Positions 3,450 to 15,002 of a stretch of DNA of 15,189 nucleotides are shown here, piece after piece. The position numbers and the translations under genes are program-made. Below the pieces are notes generated by a model that did no database searches, was not told the DNA's origin, and saw nothing but the letters and a program-made list of their open reading frames with translations. Numbering within the stretch: the first letter of the stretch is position 1; each line of letters begins with the position of its first letter. The stretch is from Candidatus Competibacterales bacterium (GTDB lineage: Bacteria > Pseudomonadota > Gammaproteobacteria > Competibacterales > Competibacteraceae), in assembly GCA_050330975.1 (NCBI GenBank), contig JBHJHK010000090.1, positions 1 through 15,189 on the forward strand, read 5' to 3'.

Positions 3450-3482
3450 TTAGATCAATTCTAAAAATGAGAACGGTTCGCA
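3450..3482. promoter_or_regulatory. operator-like motif copy 1: TTAGAT-caa-TTCTAA-aaa-TGAGAA-cgg-TTCGCA (two adjacent 6-3-6 palindromes)
   Basis: Read directly. First palindrome matches the Irr ICE box TTTAGAA-N3-TTCTAAA. Second palindrome TGAGAA-N3-TTCKCA is loosely Fur 7-1-7-like. It lies 27 bp upstream of the - strand gene start. Confidence 0.55.
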
Positions 3483-3551: not shown

Positions 3552-3584
3552 TTAGAATGATTCTATTAATGAGAGTGATTTGCA
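3552..3584. promoter_or_regulatory. operator-like motif copy 2: TTAGAA-tga-TTCTAT-taa-TGAGAG-tga-TTTGCA
   Basis: Same 6-3-6-3-6-3-6 architecture as copy 1 (about 30/41 identities over the extended alignment). It lies 30 bp upstream of the His-rich gene start (3614). Confidence 0.55.
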
Positions 3585-3613: not shown

Positions 3614-4105
3614 ATGAAGCGTCTATCATCGTCCCCAACGGTCGATTCGCGGCGCCGAATCGCCTCCCTCGCCACTGATCCTTCCGAGAGTGCCCACTCA
3701 TCGGCGGAGGCCCACGGCGGCCCCCATAGCCACGGTCGGGGCCACGGTCAGGGCCACGGCCAAGACTATGACCACAGCTACAGCTACGGCTACGGCTACC
3801 TTCCCCAACCCATGGCCATGGGACCCTTGACCCGAGTCGGCGTCGCCGGGGCGTTGGTGGGGGCCAGCGCCAGTGCCGCCCGCCACATGCGCCAGGTCCA
3901 GGCCATGGAGATGTCCCCCGTGGAGGCTGCCTTACACACCGTGGGCGACGCCTTAAAGGTGGGCGTTGCCACCGCCGCTGCCAAGGTGGCCGTGGACACG
4001 GTGCGGGGTGGGCCGGCGTTGTCCACCATGGTGATGGTGGCGGCGAGTACCGCGGTGCTATTCGCCCTGGAGGGGCGCTCGACTCAGAGCAAGGGCGATG
4101 AGTAA
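3614..4105 (+). CDS. His/Gly/Tyr-rich putative metal-binding protein with C-terminal two-helix Ala/Gly/Val-rich region (MamC/Mms13-like pattern)
   Basis: 163 aa. N-terminal ...AHGGPHSHGRGHGQGHGQDYDHSYSYGYGY..., then RVGVAGALVGASASAARHMR...VEAALHTVGDALKVGVATAAAKVAVDTVRGG...MVMVAASTAVLFAL. Operator copy 2 is 30 bp upstream. Stop TAA 4103-4105 overlaps the next ATG. Confidence 0.6.
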   Translation: MKRLSSSPTVDSRRRIASLATDPSESAHSSAEAHGGPHSHGRGHGQGHGQDYDHSYSYGYGYLPQPMAMGPLTRVGVAGALVGASASAARHMRQVQAMEMSPVEAALHTVGDALKVGVATAAAKVAVDTVRGGPALSTMVMVAASTAVLFALEGRSTQSKGDE

Positions 4106-6186: not shown

Positions 6187-6217
6187 TTAGAAAGCTTCTA
6201 AAAGAGAATGGTTCTCA
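6187..6217. promoter_or_regulatory. operator-like motif copy 3: TTAGAA-agc-TTCTAA-a-AGAGAA-tgg-TTCTCA
   Basis: Both palindromes are perfect or near-perfect; the middle spacer is 1 nt instead of 3. It lies 76 bp upstream of the HMA_2-like gene (6293), immediately after the ATPase stop. Confidence 0.55.
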
Positions 6218-6292
6218 ACAACTTTTGTCTTCTCGCCTTTGCGGTAGCTTCGGCGCTCTATTACCCCACTAAAACGTCCAGGAGAGTCCAGC

Positions 6293-6664
6293 ATGAAACC
6301 CTATGTTCACCACGTGCCCGGTCGTCTGCGCTTTAGTGCCCGCAGCTTGGTCCGTCGTCCCGCCGCCCTGGAGGCCCTGCGGGAAGCGTTGTACGAGTGC
6401 GAGGCCGTAGAGAGCGTACGCACCAATCCCCGGGCTGGCTCCATCACCGTGGAATACGACCCAAAAGGCACCACCCAGCGGGCGTTGCTAGATGTGATCC
6501 ACGCCGAGCAGGCGGCCATTGCCGGACCCGCACCCGCGGTGGGCGTCATCTCGCCAGCTGTCCAGCACAAGGCCGGCACGGTATTTGGCCAGGCGCTCTT
6601 TGGGGTAGTACTGGAAAAGACTCTTCAGCACTCGGTGACCTCTTTGGTGGCGGCGCTGCGCTGA
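6293..6664 (+). CDS. stand-alone HMA_2-like (cysteine-less heavy-metal-associated-like) domain protein
   Basis: MKPYVHHVPGRLRFSARSLVRRPAALEALREALYECEAVESVRTNPRAGSITVEYDP... The HHxPGRxRF...V(R/E)VNPxxGSxxxxYD pattern is the N-terminal domain found fused to some P-type ATPases. SD GGAGAG is 6 nt upstream of ATG 6293. Confidence 0.6.
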   Translation: MKPYVHHVPGRLRFSARSLVRRPAALEALREALYECEAVESVRTNPRAGSITVEYDPKGTTQRALLDVIHAEQAAIAGPAPAVGVISPAVQHKAGTVFGQALFGVVLEKTLQHSVTSLVAALR

Positions 6665-6726
6665 CGGAGCTCATCTCTTTCCAGGTCGCTATCCCGTCCC
6701 TCCGGTGCAAAAAACATCCATGAACA

Positions 6727-7788
6727 ATGTGTGATCTCTCCGCCGCCCCGCCGTCCCGCGACCCCGATTCCACCATTTCCTTTGCCCCGCGTGACAGCGC
6801 CCCGTTGGAGCCCAACGGCGGTGGCTGCGGGCGACGGCGCAAGCTTTGGGAGCTGGAGCCCCACTGCCACTGCGCGGTATTGGGCACTTGCTTGCCGGTC
6901 AAAGTGTTGCGGCAAATCTACACCCAGATCCAGGGAGAGGCCCCGGTTCACCTGAGCGATTACCAAATCCACAGCTTGTTCGTCAAAGAGGCCAGTGCTC
7001 CCTGTGCCGCCATTCGCCGGGTCCACAAGGCCCTGGAAGCCCGCTACCGGGTTGCCGTCCAGCGCTTTGCCAAGGCCAAGGATGAGGCCGAGTTGACGGC
7101 CTTGTGGGAAGTCGCGGTGGTCAACGAGGAGGAGGTGGCAGGCGCCTACTGGGCCCTCATGACCCATCCGCGCCTCAGTAAAATCCTGGCCGCCCGGGCC
7201 TTTGGCGACGTCCATATGCTCTCCCACCTGGCTGGACGTTGTCGTCAGCGCAGCGCCCGGCAACAGCAGCAGCTGGAGAGGCGTTGTCGGGAACTCCAAA
7301 GCCAGTTGGCCGAGCGCAGCACGGCGTTGTGTCGACTGCAGCGGGAGCGCCACGACGAGCGCCGGACCCTGGAAAAGGCCCAGCAAGCCCTCCGGGAGCG
7401 AGAGGCCACCATCGCTTATCTCGAGGCGCAACTGGTGGCGTTGGAGACGACGACGGAACTCGCCGACCTCCGCCGCCAGCTGGCCGCCGCCGAGCGCCGG
7501 GCCCAGTGGGCCGAGGGGCGGCTGGCCGCCCTGGCTTCTGAGGTGCCGCCCGCCGTCGAGGCCGAGCCCGAAACCATATCTCCCCCCCGGTGCCGGTCAA
7601 TCCCGAGCCCCCGGCATTGCCCCCTTGCCCCACCCCACCGAATTTGTGTGGTCGCTGTATTCTCTACGTCGGCGGTCGCCAGGGCTGCCGCGCCCGGCTC
7701 CAGCGCCTGGTGGAGGCCGCCAACGGCCGCTTTCTCTACCACGACGGCGGCCGGGAAGACGCCTCGGCCAGGCTCGGGGAGCTTCTAG
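6727..7788 (+). CDS. Cys-rich N-terminus plus long coiled-coil; probable N-terminal part of a DUF2325 protein, reading frame lost at the C7 tract 7582-7588 (nominal stop 7786-7788 is out-of-frame read-through)
   Basis: CGRRRKLWELEPHCHCAVLGTC motif, then an Ala/Arg/Glu/Gln-rich heptad region (...RQQQQLERRCRELQSQLAERSTALCRLQRERHDERRTLEKAQQALREREATIAYLEAQLVALETT...). After the poly-C tract, frame 1 turns into low-complexity junk. Start codon uncertain (no SD at 6727). Confidence 0.5.
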   Translation: MCDLSAAPPSRDPDSTISFAPRDSAPLEPNGGGCGRRRKLWELEPHCHCAVLGTCLPVKVLRQIYTQIQGEAPVHLSDYQIHSLFVKEASAPCAAIRRVHKALEARYRVAVQRFAKAKDEAELTALWEVAVVNEEEVAGAYWALMTHPRLSKILAARAFGDVHMLSHLAGRCRQRSARQQQQLERRCRELQSQLAERSTALCRLQRERHDERRTLEKAQQALREREATIAYLEAQLVALETTTELADLRRQLAAAERRAQWAEGRLAALASEVPPAVEAEPETISPPRCRSIPSPRHCPLAPPHRICVVAVFSTSAVARAAAPGSSAWWRPPTAAFSTTTAAGKTPRPGSGSF

Positions 7789-8931: not shown

Positions 8932-8964
8932 AAAAAATAATTAATTTAATGAGAATCGTTAGCA
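8932..8964. promoter_or_regulatory. operator-like motif copy 4: degenerate AT-rich first half plus TGAGAA-tcg-TTAGCA
   Basis: AAAAAA-taa-TTAATT-taa-TGAGAA-tcg-TTAGCA, about 70 bp upstream of the imelysin start. This is the only AT-rich island in the 8.9-9.0 kb region. Confidence 0.45.
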
Positions 8965-10412: not shown

Positions 10413-10471
10413 AAACCATAGCAACGGCCATGACGGCGGGCGCTGAAATCGCTCGCCCGAGGAGGTGTCCC

Positions 10472-12050
10472 ATGTTCCCGAGGCGTCTGTCGAGCCTGGC
10501 TGTGGCCGCGGTCATCGCCGCCCAAGTCCCAGCCGTCGAGGCCTTGGCGGTGGGAGCCGATGGCGCCCCCCCCTGGGCGTTCGACCCGTCGGAGGTCTAC
10601 CCCGGGGGCGCTGCCACCGCGGAGGTTTTCAACGAACGGGCCTATTCCCAGTTTCCCCCGGGGTTGGGTTTCATCGACCAGGGGAGTTTTAAGCGGGGCG
10701 ATCACCTGTTTCGCGGGGTACACAGGGGGTTGGGTCCTCTGTACAACGCCCGCAGTTGCCAGGGATGCCACGTCCACGACGGCCGCGGCCATCCCCCGAG
10801 CCATGGCGACGAGACCATGGTGTCGATGTTTCTGCGCCTCAGCGTCCCCGGGGTGGGGCCCCACGGCGGCCCGCGCCCCGAGCCCCGCTACGGCGACCAG
10901 CTCCAGACCTTCGCCATGGCCGGCCCCGGGGGCGAGGGCCACAGTTTTGTCGACTACGAGACGATCCAGGGTCAATACCCCGACGGCGAGCCCTTTGAAC
11001 TGCGCCGGCCGATTTACAAAGTCCGGGCCTTGACCGAGGGGCCCCTGGCGCCGACGGTGATGTTTTCCCCTCGGGTGGCGCCGCCGGTGTACGGTTTGGG
11101 CCTCATTGAAGCCATCCCCGCCGCCGCCATCGAAGCCCGGGCCGACCCCCGTGATCGCGACGGCGACGGCATCTCCGGGCGGGTCAACCGGGTGTGGGAC
11201 GCCGTGGCCGGCCGCGCCGCCGCCCCGGGTCGGTTTGGCTACAAGGCGGCCTCCCCCAGTTTGCTGCTACAGCTAGCCGGGGCCTACCGCGGGGATATGG
11301 GGGTCACCAATGAGAGCAGGCAAGTCACGAAGGGAATGGGGACGTACCTACCGCGGGGATATGGGGGTCACCAATCCCCTGTTCCCCGAGGAGTCCTGTA
11401 GCCCGCTGCAGATCACCTGTCGGGAACAAGCCCGGGAGGAACCCAGTGCCCGACCCAACGCCACCGCCCTGGAATTGGCCCTCGTGGAATTTTACAACCG
11501 CACCTTGGCGGTGCCCCGGCGCCGGGACGCCGACGACCCGGTGGTGTTGGCGGGCAAGGGCCATTTTCACCAAACGGGCTGTGTCGGCTGTCACACCCCC
11601 CGCTACGAGACCGGTCCCTTGGTGGGCTCGGCCCTGGGGGAGATCAACGGCCTGTTCCTCGACCCCGAGGCCGAGCCCCGGGAGATCGAGGTGTTGTCCC
11701 GCCAGACCATCTGGCCCTACACCGACTTGCTGCTCCACGACATGGGGGGCGAATGTCGGGCGGTGACCGAGGAGACCCCGGGGGTATGGGTCCAGCGCTG
11801 TACGGGCCTCGCCGACGGCCGCCCGGTGTTCGACGCCTCGGGGAGCGAGTGGCGCACCCCACCGCTGTGGGGCATCGGCTTGACCCAGACCGTCAATCCC
11901 CGGGCGGGATTCCTCCACGACGGCCGGGCGCGCACCGTGGAGGAGGCGATTTTGTGGCACGATGGCGAGGCCAGGGCCGCCAAAGAGGGCTTTATGGCGT
12001 TGCCCCGGGCGGCCCGGGCCGCCCTGCTGCGGTTTGTGGAGTCGTTGTAA
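10472..12050 (+). pseudogene. DUF1111 di-haem cytochrome c (di-haem peroxidase-like 'thiol oxidoreductase') paralog A, frame broken by a 64-bp insertion
   Basis: Track ORFs 10430..11401 and 11310..12050 are the two halves. Two CxxCH motifs (CQGCH, CVGCH). Removing 11312-11375 restores a continuous ...AYRGDMGVTNPLFPEESCSPLQITC... frame homologous to paralogs B and C. Start ATG 10472 has a GAGGAGG SD. Confidence 0.7.
11283..11375. repeat. perfect 29-bp direct repeat (CCTACCGCGGGGATATGGGGGTCACCAAT) flanking a 35-bp unique segment
   Basis: Copies at 11283-11311 and 11347-11375. The intervening GAGAGCAGGCAAGTCACGAAGGGAATGGGGACGTA has lower GC than its surroundings. Net insertion is 64 bp (+1 frame). 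Confidence 0.9.
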
Positions 12051-13472
12051 ATGTACCATTGGGTCGTCGCGGGACTGTTGGCTGCGGGCCTGGTGGGAGG
12101 GCCTTGGGCGTGGGGGGCGGATATCCCGGCCCTCGACCCCCGGGAGGCCTACCCCGGAGGCGAGGCCACGGCGAGGGCCACCCGGGGCCCCCTCCACTGG
12201 CGCCTGGCGCCGAATTTGGACCTGGCGGCCCAGGGCCAAGCCCTGGTGGGCCACGGCTTTTTCTCCGACCCGTGGGTGATGGCACCGGCCTCCACCACCG
12301 CCCGGGACGGCCTGGGGCCCTTGTACAACGCCCGGGCCTGTACCAGCTGCCACGCCGACGGCGGCCGGGGACGCGTTCCCCCCGGGGGTCCCTGGGTGTC
12401 TTTGGTGTTGCGCCTGCGGCCGTCCCCCCGGGGGGCCATGCCCTACGGCGACCAGCTCCAGCCCCTGGGGGTGGGACAGCCCGGGGAGGGCCACTTGCAG
12501 GTGAGCTATACCCCGCGTCCGGGTCACTACCCCGACGGCACCCCCTACACCCTCTACGTCCCGCGCTACACCGTCGTCGATACCGTCGCCGATACCGTCG
12601 CCGATACCGTCGCCGATGGGACCCCCGACTCGCCGAACCCCGGCTCGCCAAAGCGCCTCCCCGGCCCCGCCTCGGCGCGGCTGGCCCAGCCCCTCTACGG
12701 CCTGGGGCTGTTGGAGGCCATTCCCCCCGGGGTCATCGAAGCCCGAGCCGACCCCGGTGATCGCGACGGCGACGGCATCTCCGGGCGGGCGGCCCAGGTG
12801 GTGGAGCTCGCCAGCGGCGCCCGGCGGTTGGGACGCTTTGGCCACAAGGCCCGCCATCCCACGGTGCACCAGCAGGTGGCCCACGCCTTTGCCAACGACA
12901 TCGGCATCACCAACCCCCTCTACCCCGCCCAGCCCTGCGCCCCCGCCCAAGTCCGCTGCCTAGCCGGGCCCCACGGCCCCGGGCCGGGCACCGACCACGA
13001 GATCGACGCCGAGCGCCTGGCCGCCGTGACCCGCCTCACCCAGAGCCTCGGTCCGCCGCGGCGCCCGGACTGGGATGACCCCGCGGTGGTGGCGGGGCGG
13101 GCCCTGTTCCACCGGGTGGGATGCGCCACCTGCCACACCCCCCGCTTTGCCCTCGACCCCGGGACCGACCCCGCCGGCCCGGGCCAGGTGATCTGGCCCT
13201 ACAGCGACGTGTTGCTCCACGACATGGGGGACGAGCTGGCCGACGGGGTCGCCGAGGGGGACGCCTCGGGGCGGGAATGGCGCACGCCGCCCCTGTGGGG
13301 TTTGCGGGCCGTGGACCCCCGCCACGCCCGCTACCTCCACGACGCCCGCGCCCGGACCCTGGAGGAGGCGATTTTGTGGCACGGCGGCGAGGGCGCCGCC
13401 GCCCGGGAGGGCTTTCGCCGGCTGACGGCGACCCAGCGCCGGTTGCTGCTGCGGTTTTTGGCCTCCCTTTAA
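12051..13472 (+). CDS. DUF1111 di-haem cytochrome c paralog B
   Basis: CTSCH and CATCH haem-binding motifs; conserved DRDGDGISGR, GRFGHKA, EWRTPPLWG and EEAILWHGGEG blocks shared with paralogs A and C. ATG 12051 abuts the stop of A. Signal-like N-terminus. Confidence 0.8.
   Translation: MYHWVVAGLLAAGLVGGPWAWGADIPALDPREAYPGGEATARATRGPLHWRLAPNLDLAAQGQALVGHGFFSDPWVMAPASTTARDGLGPLYNARACTSCHADGGRGRVPPGGPWVSLVLRLRPSPRGAMPYGDQLQPLGVGQPGEGHLQVSYTPRPGHYPDGTPYTLYVPRYTVVDTVADTVADTVADGTPDSPNPGSPKRLPGPASARLAQPLYGLGLLEAIPPGVIEARADPGDRDGDGISGRAAQVVELASGARRLGRFGHKARHPTVHQQVAHAFANDIGITNPLYPAQPCAPAQVRCLAGPHGPGPGTDHEIDAERLAAVTRLTQSLGPPRRPDWDDPAVVAGRALFHRVGCATCHTPRFALDPGTDPAGPGQVIWPYSDVLLHDMGDELADGVAEGDASGREWRTPPLWGLRAVDPRHARYLHDARARTLEEAILWHGGEGAAAREGFRRLTATQRRLLLRFLASL
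12571..12617 (+). repeat. in-frame 12-bp tandem repeat (GATACCGTCGCC, three full units plus partials) encoding (DTVA)n
   Basis: Units at 12579-12590, 12591-12602 and 12603-12614. They encode ...YTVVDTVADTVADTVADGT... in a loop that is absent from paralogs A and C. Confidence 0.85.
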
Positions 13473-13613: not shown

Positions 13614-15002
13614 TTGAGACCGATGCCTCTTGGCGCCCTCGGGGGGATCGCCCTCCTCGGCGCCGGCCTCTGGACGACGGGGTGGACGGCGCCGGGGGCG
13701 TTGTCTCCCCCCTCGGTGGCGGTGGGGGCGGCGTTGTTCAAGGCCGACCACCCCAAGGCCGGCCCGCTCCTCAACGCCGCCGCCTGTAGCGCCTGCCACG
13801 CCGGCGGGGGTCGGGGCGACGCTCCGGCGGCCAGTGGTCCCTTGCCGGCGGCGGTGGTGTTGCGCTTGAGTGCCCCCGCCCGCCGCCGCACCGGAGAACC
13901 GGCCCCCGATGTCCGCTACGGCGACCAGCTCCAACCCCTATCCCACCACCCCCACCACCCCGGGCTGGGACTGGGGGAGGGACGCATCGACGTGGTGTAC
14001 CGCCCCGTGGAGGGTCGTTATGCAGACGGCACCCCCTACACCCTGCGGGCTCCGGTGTACCGGGTGCGCGGTCTGGCCCACGGCCCCCTGGGGGAGGGGG
14101 TGACCTTTTCGGTGCGCAGCGCCCCGGCGGTGGTGGGGCTAGGGGCCCTCCAGGCCATTCCGGCCACGGAACTCGCCGCCCGCGCCGACCCCTTTGACGC
14201 CGACGGCGACGGCATCTCCGGGCGGATCAACTGGGTGTGGGACATCTTAGAAGCTCGCCACGCCCCGGGGCGCTTTGGCCACAAGGGGGAGATGCCCTCG
14301 TTGGTCCAGCAGATCGCCGGGGCCCTGTGGAGCGACATGGGGGTCACCAGTCCTCTGTTTCCCTGGCCGGTGTGCACCGCCGTCCAGGGGGATTGTTTGG
14401 CCCGGGTCGATTTCGCCGTGCTCGACGCCGACGGCGGCCAGTTGGCGGCCCTAGAGGCCTTTCACCTCGCCCTGCCGCCCCCCGCCCGGCGCGGCTATCC
14501 CCAAGACCCCGAGGTGCGCCGGGGGGCCGAGTTGTTCGAGGGGTTGAATTGCAGTACCTGCCACACGCCTCGCCAGCGGGTGGGTCCCATCCGCCCGTCG
14601 CCCCTGGCCAGTGGCTTGCAGCGGACGGGGCGCGGCGCCGTACCCCGCCCCCCCGGGGGGATAATTTGGCCCTACACCGACCTATTGCTCCACGATATGG
14701 GGGGGGACTGCGACCCCGTGGTCCAAGAGGGGGACGCCTGGGTCCAGCGCTGCACCGGGCTCGCCGACGGTCGGGTGGTATTCGACGCCTCGGGCCGAGA
14801 ATGGCGCACCCCGCCCCTGTGGGGGCTGGGGTGGGCCAAGGCCCTCAATCCCGAGATGGGCTACCTCCACGACGGCCGCGCCCGGACTTTGGAAGAAGCG
14901 ATCCTGTGGCACGGCGGCGAGGGCACCGCGGCGAGGGAGGGATTCCGCCAGCTGACGGCGGCCCAGCGCCGGGCGCTGCTGCGGTTTTTGGCTTCCCTTT
15001 GA
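13614..15002 (+). CDS. DUF1111 di-haem cytochrome c paralog C
   Basis: CSACH and CSTCH motifs; same conserved blocks as A and B. TTG 13614 is preceded by GAGGAGGA 13601-13608 at 5-nt spacing; ATG 13623 is the alternative. Stop 15000-15002. Confidence 0.8.
   Translation: MRPMPLGALGGIALLGAGLWTTGWTAPGALSPPSVAVGAALFKADHPKAGPLLNAAACSACHAGGGRGDAPAASGPLPAAVVLRLSAPARRRTGEPAPDVRYGDQLQPLSHHPHHPGLGLGEGRIDVVYRPVEGRYADGTPYTLRAPVYRVRGLAHGPLGEGVTFSVRSAPAVVGLGALQAIPATELAARADPFDADGDGISGRINWVWDILEARHAPGRFGHKGEMPSLVQQIAGALWSDMGVTSPLFPWPVCTAVQGDCLARVDFAVLDADGGQLAALEAFHLALPPPARRGYPQDPEVRRGAELFEGLNCSTCHTPRQRVGPIRPSPLASGLQRTGRGAVPRPPGGIIWPYTDLLLHDMGGDCDPVVQEGDAWVQRCTGLADGRVVFDASGREWRTPPLWGLGWAKALNPEMGYLHDGRARTLEEAILWHGGEGTAAREGFRQLTAAQRRALLRFLASL

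Follow-up and report, generated by a model that had tools for sequence, protein, structure and literature searches.

In the window analyzed here, a whole contig of 15,189 bp from a MAG labelled Candidatus Competibacterales bacterium (proteins MGF15259xx), the first of three tandem DUF1111/DHOR genes, paralog A, is split by a 64-bp insertion in which a 29-bp piece of the gene is found twice, as identical direct copies on either side of a unique 35-bp filler. The lesion is ordinary in its effect, one of three seemingly redundant paralogs being turned into a pseudogene, and unusual in its form. Indeed, a 29-bp repeat, a 35-bp spacer and a second 29-bp repeat make up the geometry of a minimal CRISPR unit, and this geometry points to a specific enzyme, Cas1-Cas2, where the initial annotation had evoked a generic mobile or recombination event. 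We tentatively propose that off-target spacer integration by Cas1-Cas2 made the insertion and gave rise to a "neo-CRISPR" unit. This reading, which rests on the geometry and on the exclusion of rivals, is in our view a serious possibility, somewhat short of an even chance. The features concerned are the following.

10430 to 11401, forward strand: N-terminal fragment of paralog A, 323 aa (ORF list), with a Pfam DHOR match (54-310 of 499), a signal-peptide-like start and the first CxxCH motif
11283 to 11311, forward strand: first repeat copy (R1), 29 bp, exact repeat, belonging to the original reading frame of paralog A and coding for (A)YRGDMGVTN
11312 to 11346, no strand assigned: filler or "spacer" (X), 35 bp, GAGAGCAGGCAAGTCACGAAGGGAATGGGGACGTA, unique in the window and absent from orthologs
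11347 to 11375, forward strand: second repeat copy (R2), 29 bp, identical to R1, running in the correct frame into the remainder of paralog A
11310 to 12050, forward strand: C-terminal fragment of paralog A (ORF list), with a Pfam DHOR match (291-499 of 499) and the second CxxCH motif, without signal peptide
12051 to 13472, forward strand: paralog B, intact DUF1111/DHOR gene (ORF list; Pfam)
13614 to 15002, forward strand: paralog C, intact DUF1111/DHOR gene (ORF list; Pfam)

The 29-mer, CCTACCGCGGGGATATGGGGGTCACCAAT, has exactly two copies in the window, 35 bp apart and with 0 mismatches between them, as the initial annotation had it. Two matches were obtained in none of 200 dinucleotide shuffles. 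The repeat is not extendable on either side, the left neighbours being G vs. A and the right neighbours G vs. C. From left to right, the order at the site is GCTAGCCGGGG - CCTACCGCGGGGATATGGGGGTCACCAAT - GAGAGCAGGCAAGTCACGAAGGGAATGGGGACGTA - CCTACCGCGGGGATATGGGGGTCACCAAT - CCCCTGTTCC. The repeat-filler-repeat as a whole covers 93 bp, and the added length is 29 + 35 = 64. Since 64 nt correspond to 63 + 1, the reading frame is shifted, a consequence that the initial annotation had also drawn. The 35-bp filler has a single copy in the window, even when up to 3 mismatches are allowed. Its GC content had been described as lower than that of the locus. The value is indeed lower, 57% against a mean of 71% (sd 9%), but it lies only at the 9th percentile among 35-bp windows of the locus and the difference is not significant.

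Joining 10430-11311 to 11376-12050, that is, removing the 64 bp, restores an open frame of 518 aa that codes for a DUF1111/DHOR protein. The repaired protein has two CxxCH motifs, CQGCH and CVGCH, and its best intact homologs are 59-65% identical. Against the Pfam DHOR profile (PF06537), the two fragments cover positions 54-310 and 291-499 of 499. With this full-length profile match and the two CxxCH motifs, the host gene is a DUF1111/DHOR di-haem oxidoreductase. Once the insertion is taken out, paralog A thus has its full length and can be aligned collinearly with B, with C and with all orthologs, which bears out the view of the initial annotation on paralogs A, B and C. As it stands, however, the gene consists of two overlapping ORFs that meet at the insertion (10430-11401, 323 aa, and 11310-12050, 246 aa). 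From 11312 onwards, the N-terminal ORF translates the filler and then R2 out of frame, until the stop codon at 11399-11401, and its product carries a tail of 30 residues foreign to the native protein, ESRQVTKGMGTYLPRGYGGHQSPVPRGVL. In NCBI, this fragment starts at 10469 and has 309 aa, the identical protein being MGF1525981.1. The C-terminal ORF extends from the ATG at 11310 onwards, and the gene call in another assembly, GCA_964603305.1, begins at the ATG at 11361 and gives 229 aa. Attachment of c-type haem is periplasmic. As it has no signal peptide, the C-terminal half should therefore be inactive. We infer a loss of function of paralog A, in agreement with the initial annotation, which had judged the gene broken as written: what is left is an N-terminal ORF of 323 aa whose tail is out of frame, followed by a C-terminal ORF that has no leader. 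In annotations, a single pseudogene should take the place of two DHOR proteins for paralog A.

The 29-mer codes for a conserved motif, AYRGDMGVTN / AGAYRGDMGVTN, which is part of LAGAYRGDMGVTNPLF. Comparison with relatives shows the motif uninterrupted and the insert absent in 11 orthologs and in paralogs B and C, the 35-bp segment being found in none of them. Because the motif is conserved and uninterrupted in the relatives, the 29-mer is the duplicated target and not an imported repeat, and the filler is lineage-specific. In paralog C, the counterpart of the 29-mer is 69% identical. In a protein database of 5.8 billion clusters, no intact allele of paralog A was found; the split N-terminal fragment is the sole match at ~100%, and the next ones are at 59-65%. 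An uninserted close relative was also sought among genome contigs, where the best match is 59% identical. Fifteen bp upstream of the insertion, a SNP at position 11268 distinguishes the window (T, Leu) from GCA_964603305.1 (A, Gln). The Gln is invariant among orthologs (LQQLAG), and the non-synonymous change of Gln to Leu, which is a single observation, would fit a decaying paralog A.

The insertion is real and heritable, even if the three assemblies in which it is seen may share one sampling project. The same locus is carried by a 29,019-bp contig of a second MAG, GCA_964603305.1. Over 14.3 kb, 6 SNPs and 2 indels separate this contig from the window, the indels being 1 bp in a homopolymer (C7/C8) and one unit of a 12-bp tandem repeat, and the 93-bp repeat-filler-repeat is identical in both. 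In addition, a per-run contig from Logan, SRR6462993_266296 (1,319 bp), starts at window position 11289 and spans 23 nt of R1, the filler, R2 and the sequence onward. The k-mer size of the Logan per-run assembly is presumably 31. As the 29-bp repeat is shorter than that, the graph should not have collapsed at the repeat. The initial annotation had considered that the structure might be an artefact of assembly. Such an explanation, extended here to sequencing errors and implying an intact paralog A in the true genome, could draw on the facts that every dataset is a metagenome assembly, that reads of one project may be common to the three assemblies, that breaks between Logan contigs fall close to the insertion (at 11180 and 11289), and that the window has a C7/C8 homopolymer difference elsewhere. 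We nevertheless consider it very unlikely, since an identical structure is found in assemblies that differ by SNPs and indels and were made by different assemblers. Moreover, the per-run contig reads through R1, X and R2, and the search of the 5.8 billion protein clusters gave no trace of an intact allele. The three paralogs had furthermore been presented as near-identical. This is not the case, as paralogs A, B and C have a protein identity of 51-53% only and their longest exact common stretch is 25-33 nt, and a misassembly driven by the paralogs is thereby ruled out.

A contig of the same Logan run (SRR6462993) begins one base after the SNP at 7641 (7641-7642) and has GCA_964603305.1-type alleles at both 8791 and 12417, so that the SRR6462993 sample may well contain two strain variants side by side.

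CRISPR repeats generally measure ~23-47 bp and spacers ~26-50 bp. To our knowledge, Cas1-Cas2 is the sole integrase that duplicates ~28-37 bp by staggered cuts while inserting ~30-40 bp. In the proposed mechanism, Cas1-Cas2 loaded with a ~35-bp prespacer would have acted outside a CRISPR array, performing two transesterifications on opposite strands, 29 bp apart inside paralog A. Repair of the two single-stranded gaps would have duplicated the 29 bp, and the product would be a "neo-CRISPR" unit with one spacer, repeat(29)-spacer(35)-repeat(29). The additional 64 nt would then have shifted the frame and made paralog A a pseudogene, in which the N-terminal haem domain would end in the 30-residue non-native tail and the C-terminal haem domain, devoid of an export signal, could not receive haem in the periplasm. 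Provided that they are redundant with paralog A, the intact paralogs B and C would account for the lesion being tolerated. What is seen at the site resembles a neo-CRISPR locus in two respects. The duplicated sequence is a pre-existing one, present as a single uninterrupted copy in the 11 orthologs and in paralogs B and C. In addition, the insert is unique, of spacer length, unrelated to its flanks and without inverted ends.

Other features count against the proposal. Although they are within the general CRISPR range, 29 and 35 bp do not correspond to type I-E or type I-F geometry. In Proteobacteria, the commonest arrangements are I-E, 29 + 32 (61), and I-F, 28 + 32 (60). The 64-bp period observed here is nearer to I-B-like values, ~30 + 35, than to those of I-E or I-F. 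The 29-mer has no hairpin (MFE of -4.5 kcal/mol, weaker than shuffles), which counts against a CRISPR repeat, and it starts with C or A, depending on the strand, instead of the usual 5' G. In the 29-kb contig of the host, there are no cas genes and no CRISPR arrays, and no further CRISPR-like repeat pairs were found in 30 kb of host DNA including the window. Comparison by hand of the 29-mer with type I-E repeats, which we take to read ...CAGCGGGGATAAACCG, gave a match, GCGGGGATA, that is out of register, as it would place the cuts 9-10 bp from their observed positions in either orientation, and is regarded as a coincidence. Exact repeats at distances of 40-110 bp were also sought, as a background, in 1.57 Mb of unrelated loci, and one of the geometric look-alikes was inspected. 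This 27/33 arrangement, at position 6901 of one unrelated locus, is an imperfect 30-bp tandem repeat and belongs to a different class. The literature gave nothing useful on CRISPR in Competibacter or on SRR6462993.

As for the origin of the filler, a template was sought in 30 kb of host DNA, on both strands. Nothing reached 10 nt, the only matches being chance 7-9-mers, and local templated insertion or template switching was rejected on this ground. Another candidate was that the filler derives from the repeat by decay (GGGA-ATGGGG vs. GGGATATGGGG). The local alignment score is 8, a value equalled by 8.6% of shuffles (p ~0.09), and this candidate was discarded. Simple tandem duplication was likewise rejected, as the filler matches neither flank and its similarity to the repeat is not significant. 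Hence, the initial description of the site as a target duplication plus unrelated DNA, and not a tandem duplication, stands. The ends of the filler, GAGAGC... and ...GACGTA, are not inverted repeats, as can be read directly. The possibility of further copies of the 35-bp segment, also raised initially, is not borne out in the window, in the 30 kb of host DNA or in the collections searched. By blastn, the full 35-mer has no match in phages and plasmids. In viral contigs (IMG/VR), no match was found to the exact 35-mer, to pieces of 19-22 nt or to three wobble-masked phases, and two 22-mers of the filler have no match in JGI metagenome contigs. Most natural spacers have no known match either. 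An IS, a MITE or another transposon was rejected as the source in view of the 29-bp duplication, the absence of inverted ends and the absence of a second copy in the 30 kb or in the collections.

The same repeat-filler-repeat product could have been reached without CRISPR enzymes, either by end-joining with filler DNA, in which a 35-bp fragment was captured between two nicks lying 29 bp from each other and the gaps were then filled, or through an integrase with a long stagger. Such an origin would agree with the lack of cas genes in the 29-kb contig, with the lack of a protospacer in phage, plasmid, viral and metagenome collections and with a 29-mer that does not have the usual features of CRISPR repeats. 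However, the rejoined junctions show no microhomology, a template switch would find no local template, and we know of no described bacterial pathway that yields 29-bp duplications with ~35-bp filler. We regard this origin as unlikely, though it keeps an appreciable weight. Integrated elements, for their part, are flanked by identical direct repeats of 15-60 bp, and the filler is unrelated to host sequence. Both points would be compatible with the remnant of a site-specific integrative element, of which the 29-mer would be the att core, present in attL and attR, and of which all but 35 bp would later have been deleted. This scenario is improbable: it calls for two events, with an internal deletion sparing by chance just 35 bp, at a site located mid-gene in a conserved motif that is not a known att target. 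Neither an integrase nor debris of an element is present nearby, and no related element carrying the 35-mer was found in the phage, plasmid, viral and metagenome collections.

The remaining explanation concerns the gene product and not the origin of the DNA. The initial annotation had left room for a +1 recoding event by which paralog A would still be functional. This could take the form of a 64-nt ribosome hop from R1 to the identical codon in R2 or of a +1 shift within 11275-11398. For each codon of R1, the same codon indeed recurs 64 nt further on as a landing site, a hop would restore exactly the ancestral protein, and both frames are open across the insert. Yet there is no stop after any take-off codon, the first in-frame stop being 29 codons after R1. 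There is no stem-loop either, the site folding no better than shuffles (z = +0.77), and no Rfam family was found at the site. The insert is not conserved in any relative, and the change of the Gln at 11268 in one lineage is what is expected of a decaying gene. With no supporting stop codon or RNA structure at the site, this escape is hardly credible. If recoding were nevertheless true, paralog A would provide, on a bacterial chromosome, an equivalent of the bypassing known from T4 gene 60, made in one duplication-insertion step.

Several observations concern the neighbourhood of the insertion. The stop codon of paralog A directly adjoins the ATG of paralog B at 12051 (window 12048-12053), and the frameshift in paralog A could lower the expression of paralogs B and C, by loss of translational coupling or by polarity. 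Within paralog B, a 12-bp tandem repeat, ACCGTCGCCGAT, which encodes DTVA, has 4 units (window 12570-12617). The same repeat has 5 units in the GCA_964603305.1 contig (12095-12154), which makes it an in-frame copy-number polymorphism in an intact DUF1111 gene, and one Logan contig (SRR6462993) terminates within it. At window 7575-7582, a run of seven C is found where GCA_964603305.1 has eight. The C7 splits a gene for a 412-aa DUF2325 protein that is intact in the other assembly (6255-7493), and it could be either a homopolymer sequencing error or a second true frameshift.

AT-rich motifs resembling Fur boxes are located at window 8945-8963, 3454-3482, 3556-3584 and 6204-6222, upstream of the imelysin gene, of a 163-aa ORF at 3614 and of the HMA_2 gene. 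One example, TTTAATGAGAATCGTTAGC, has 5 mismatches to the 19-bp Fur consensus. These motifs suggest that the cluster made up of imelysin and the three DUF1111 genes is iron-regulated. For the 163-aa ORF (3614-4105), the precomputed gene table gives PF26373 (MamC, magnetosome protein). At odds with this listing, hmmscan against Pfam-A found no match at E <= 0.01. Finally, a tRNA-Met (CAT) gene is present at 1613-1685, between an ORF at 109-1098, which has no Pfam match, and a slipin/Band_7 gene.

If the insertion does stem from Cas1-Cas2, it would join the very small number of natural cases on record in which CRISPR adaptation struck a chromosome elsewhere than in an array. The event took place in the gene of a conserved enzyme, and two or more variants of a wild population have inherited it. 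It would mean that spacer acquisition can be mutagenic in nature, that gene redundancy can buffer the cost of spacer acquisition and that one-spacer "seed" arrays can persist. If, on the other hand, the cause is not CRISPR, the site would reveal an undescribed route by which bacteria duplicate a long target around a short filler.

The site can be compared with several known systems. Programmed bypassing is known from phage T4 gene 60, with a 50-nt gap, and from the "byps" of Magnusiomyces mitochondria. As in these systems, paralog A has a non-coding gap in an otherwise intact frame, with identical take-off and landing codons. In contrast, the gap is here of 64 nt, no stop follows the take-off codon, and neither a take-off hairpin nor conservation is seen; the identity of the take-off and landing codons is moreover trivial, as it results from the duplication. 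Transposons, MITEs and casposons also place foreign DNA between direct copies of the target. Their target-site duplications are of 2-15 bp for transposons and MITEs and of 14-15 bp for casposons, which use a Cas1 casposase. Here, the duplication is of 29 bp, and the insert has neither inverted repeats nor coding capacity and is present once only. Canonical CRISPR arrays, virus-borne mini-arrays and solitary repeat units have in common with the site the succession repeat-spacer-repeat, here 29/35/29. Canonical CRISPR repeats are dedicated, non-coding sequences that often are palindromic, form hairpins or have a conserved 3' handle, and that lie beside a leader or cas genes. In contrast, the repeat is here a piece of the reading frame of an enzyme, without hairpin or leader and with no cas gene in the 29-kb contig, and a canonical array is ruled out on the basis of this coding repeat without hairpin and of the lack of cas genes.

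The closest parallel to the proposed Cas1-Cas2 event is provided by the neo-CRISPR loci. As reported in vivo in E. coli, integration can occur off target, outside arrays, and putative, circumstantial natural cases are mentioned for two further species (Nivala et al., 2018, summarized in 10.1101/148544, PMC11788318, and PMC9456107). According to the papers citing this work, off-target integration in E. coli was seen only with over-expressed Cas1-Cas2 (Nivala et al., 2018). For Cas1-Cas2 of P. furiosus, off-target integration was obtained in vitro (PMC6698737). The present site departs from neo-CRISPR loci by its 64-bp period, vs. 61 for I-E and 60 for I-F, and by the fact that no protospacer, PAM or leader/IHF-like context was found. 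It also differs by its position inside a coding motif that is conserved, and by its fixation in no fewer than two of the variants sampled. The likeness lies in the structure itself. Indeed, neo-CRISPR loci, as they are outlined in the available accounts (Nivala, Shipman and Church, Nat Microbiol 2018), lie outside arrays and have neither inverted ends nor a transposase, and a pre-existing genomic sequence of repeat length is doubled in them around one unique insert of spacer length, which is the very arrangement found in paralog A.
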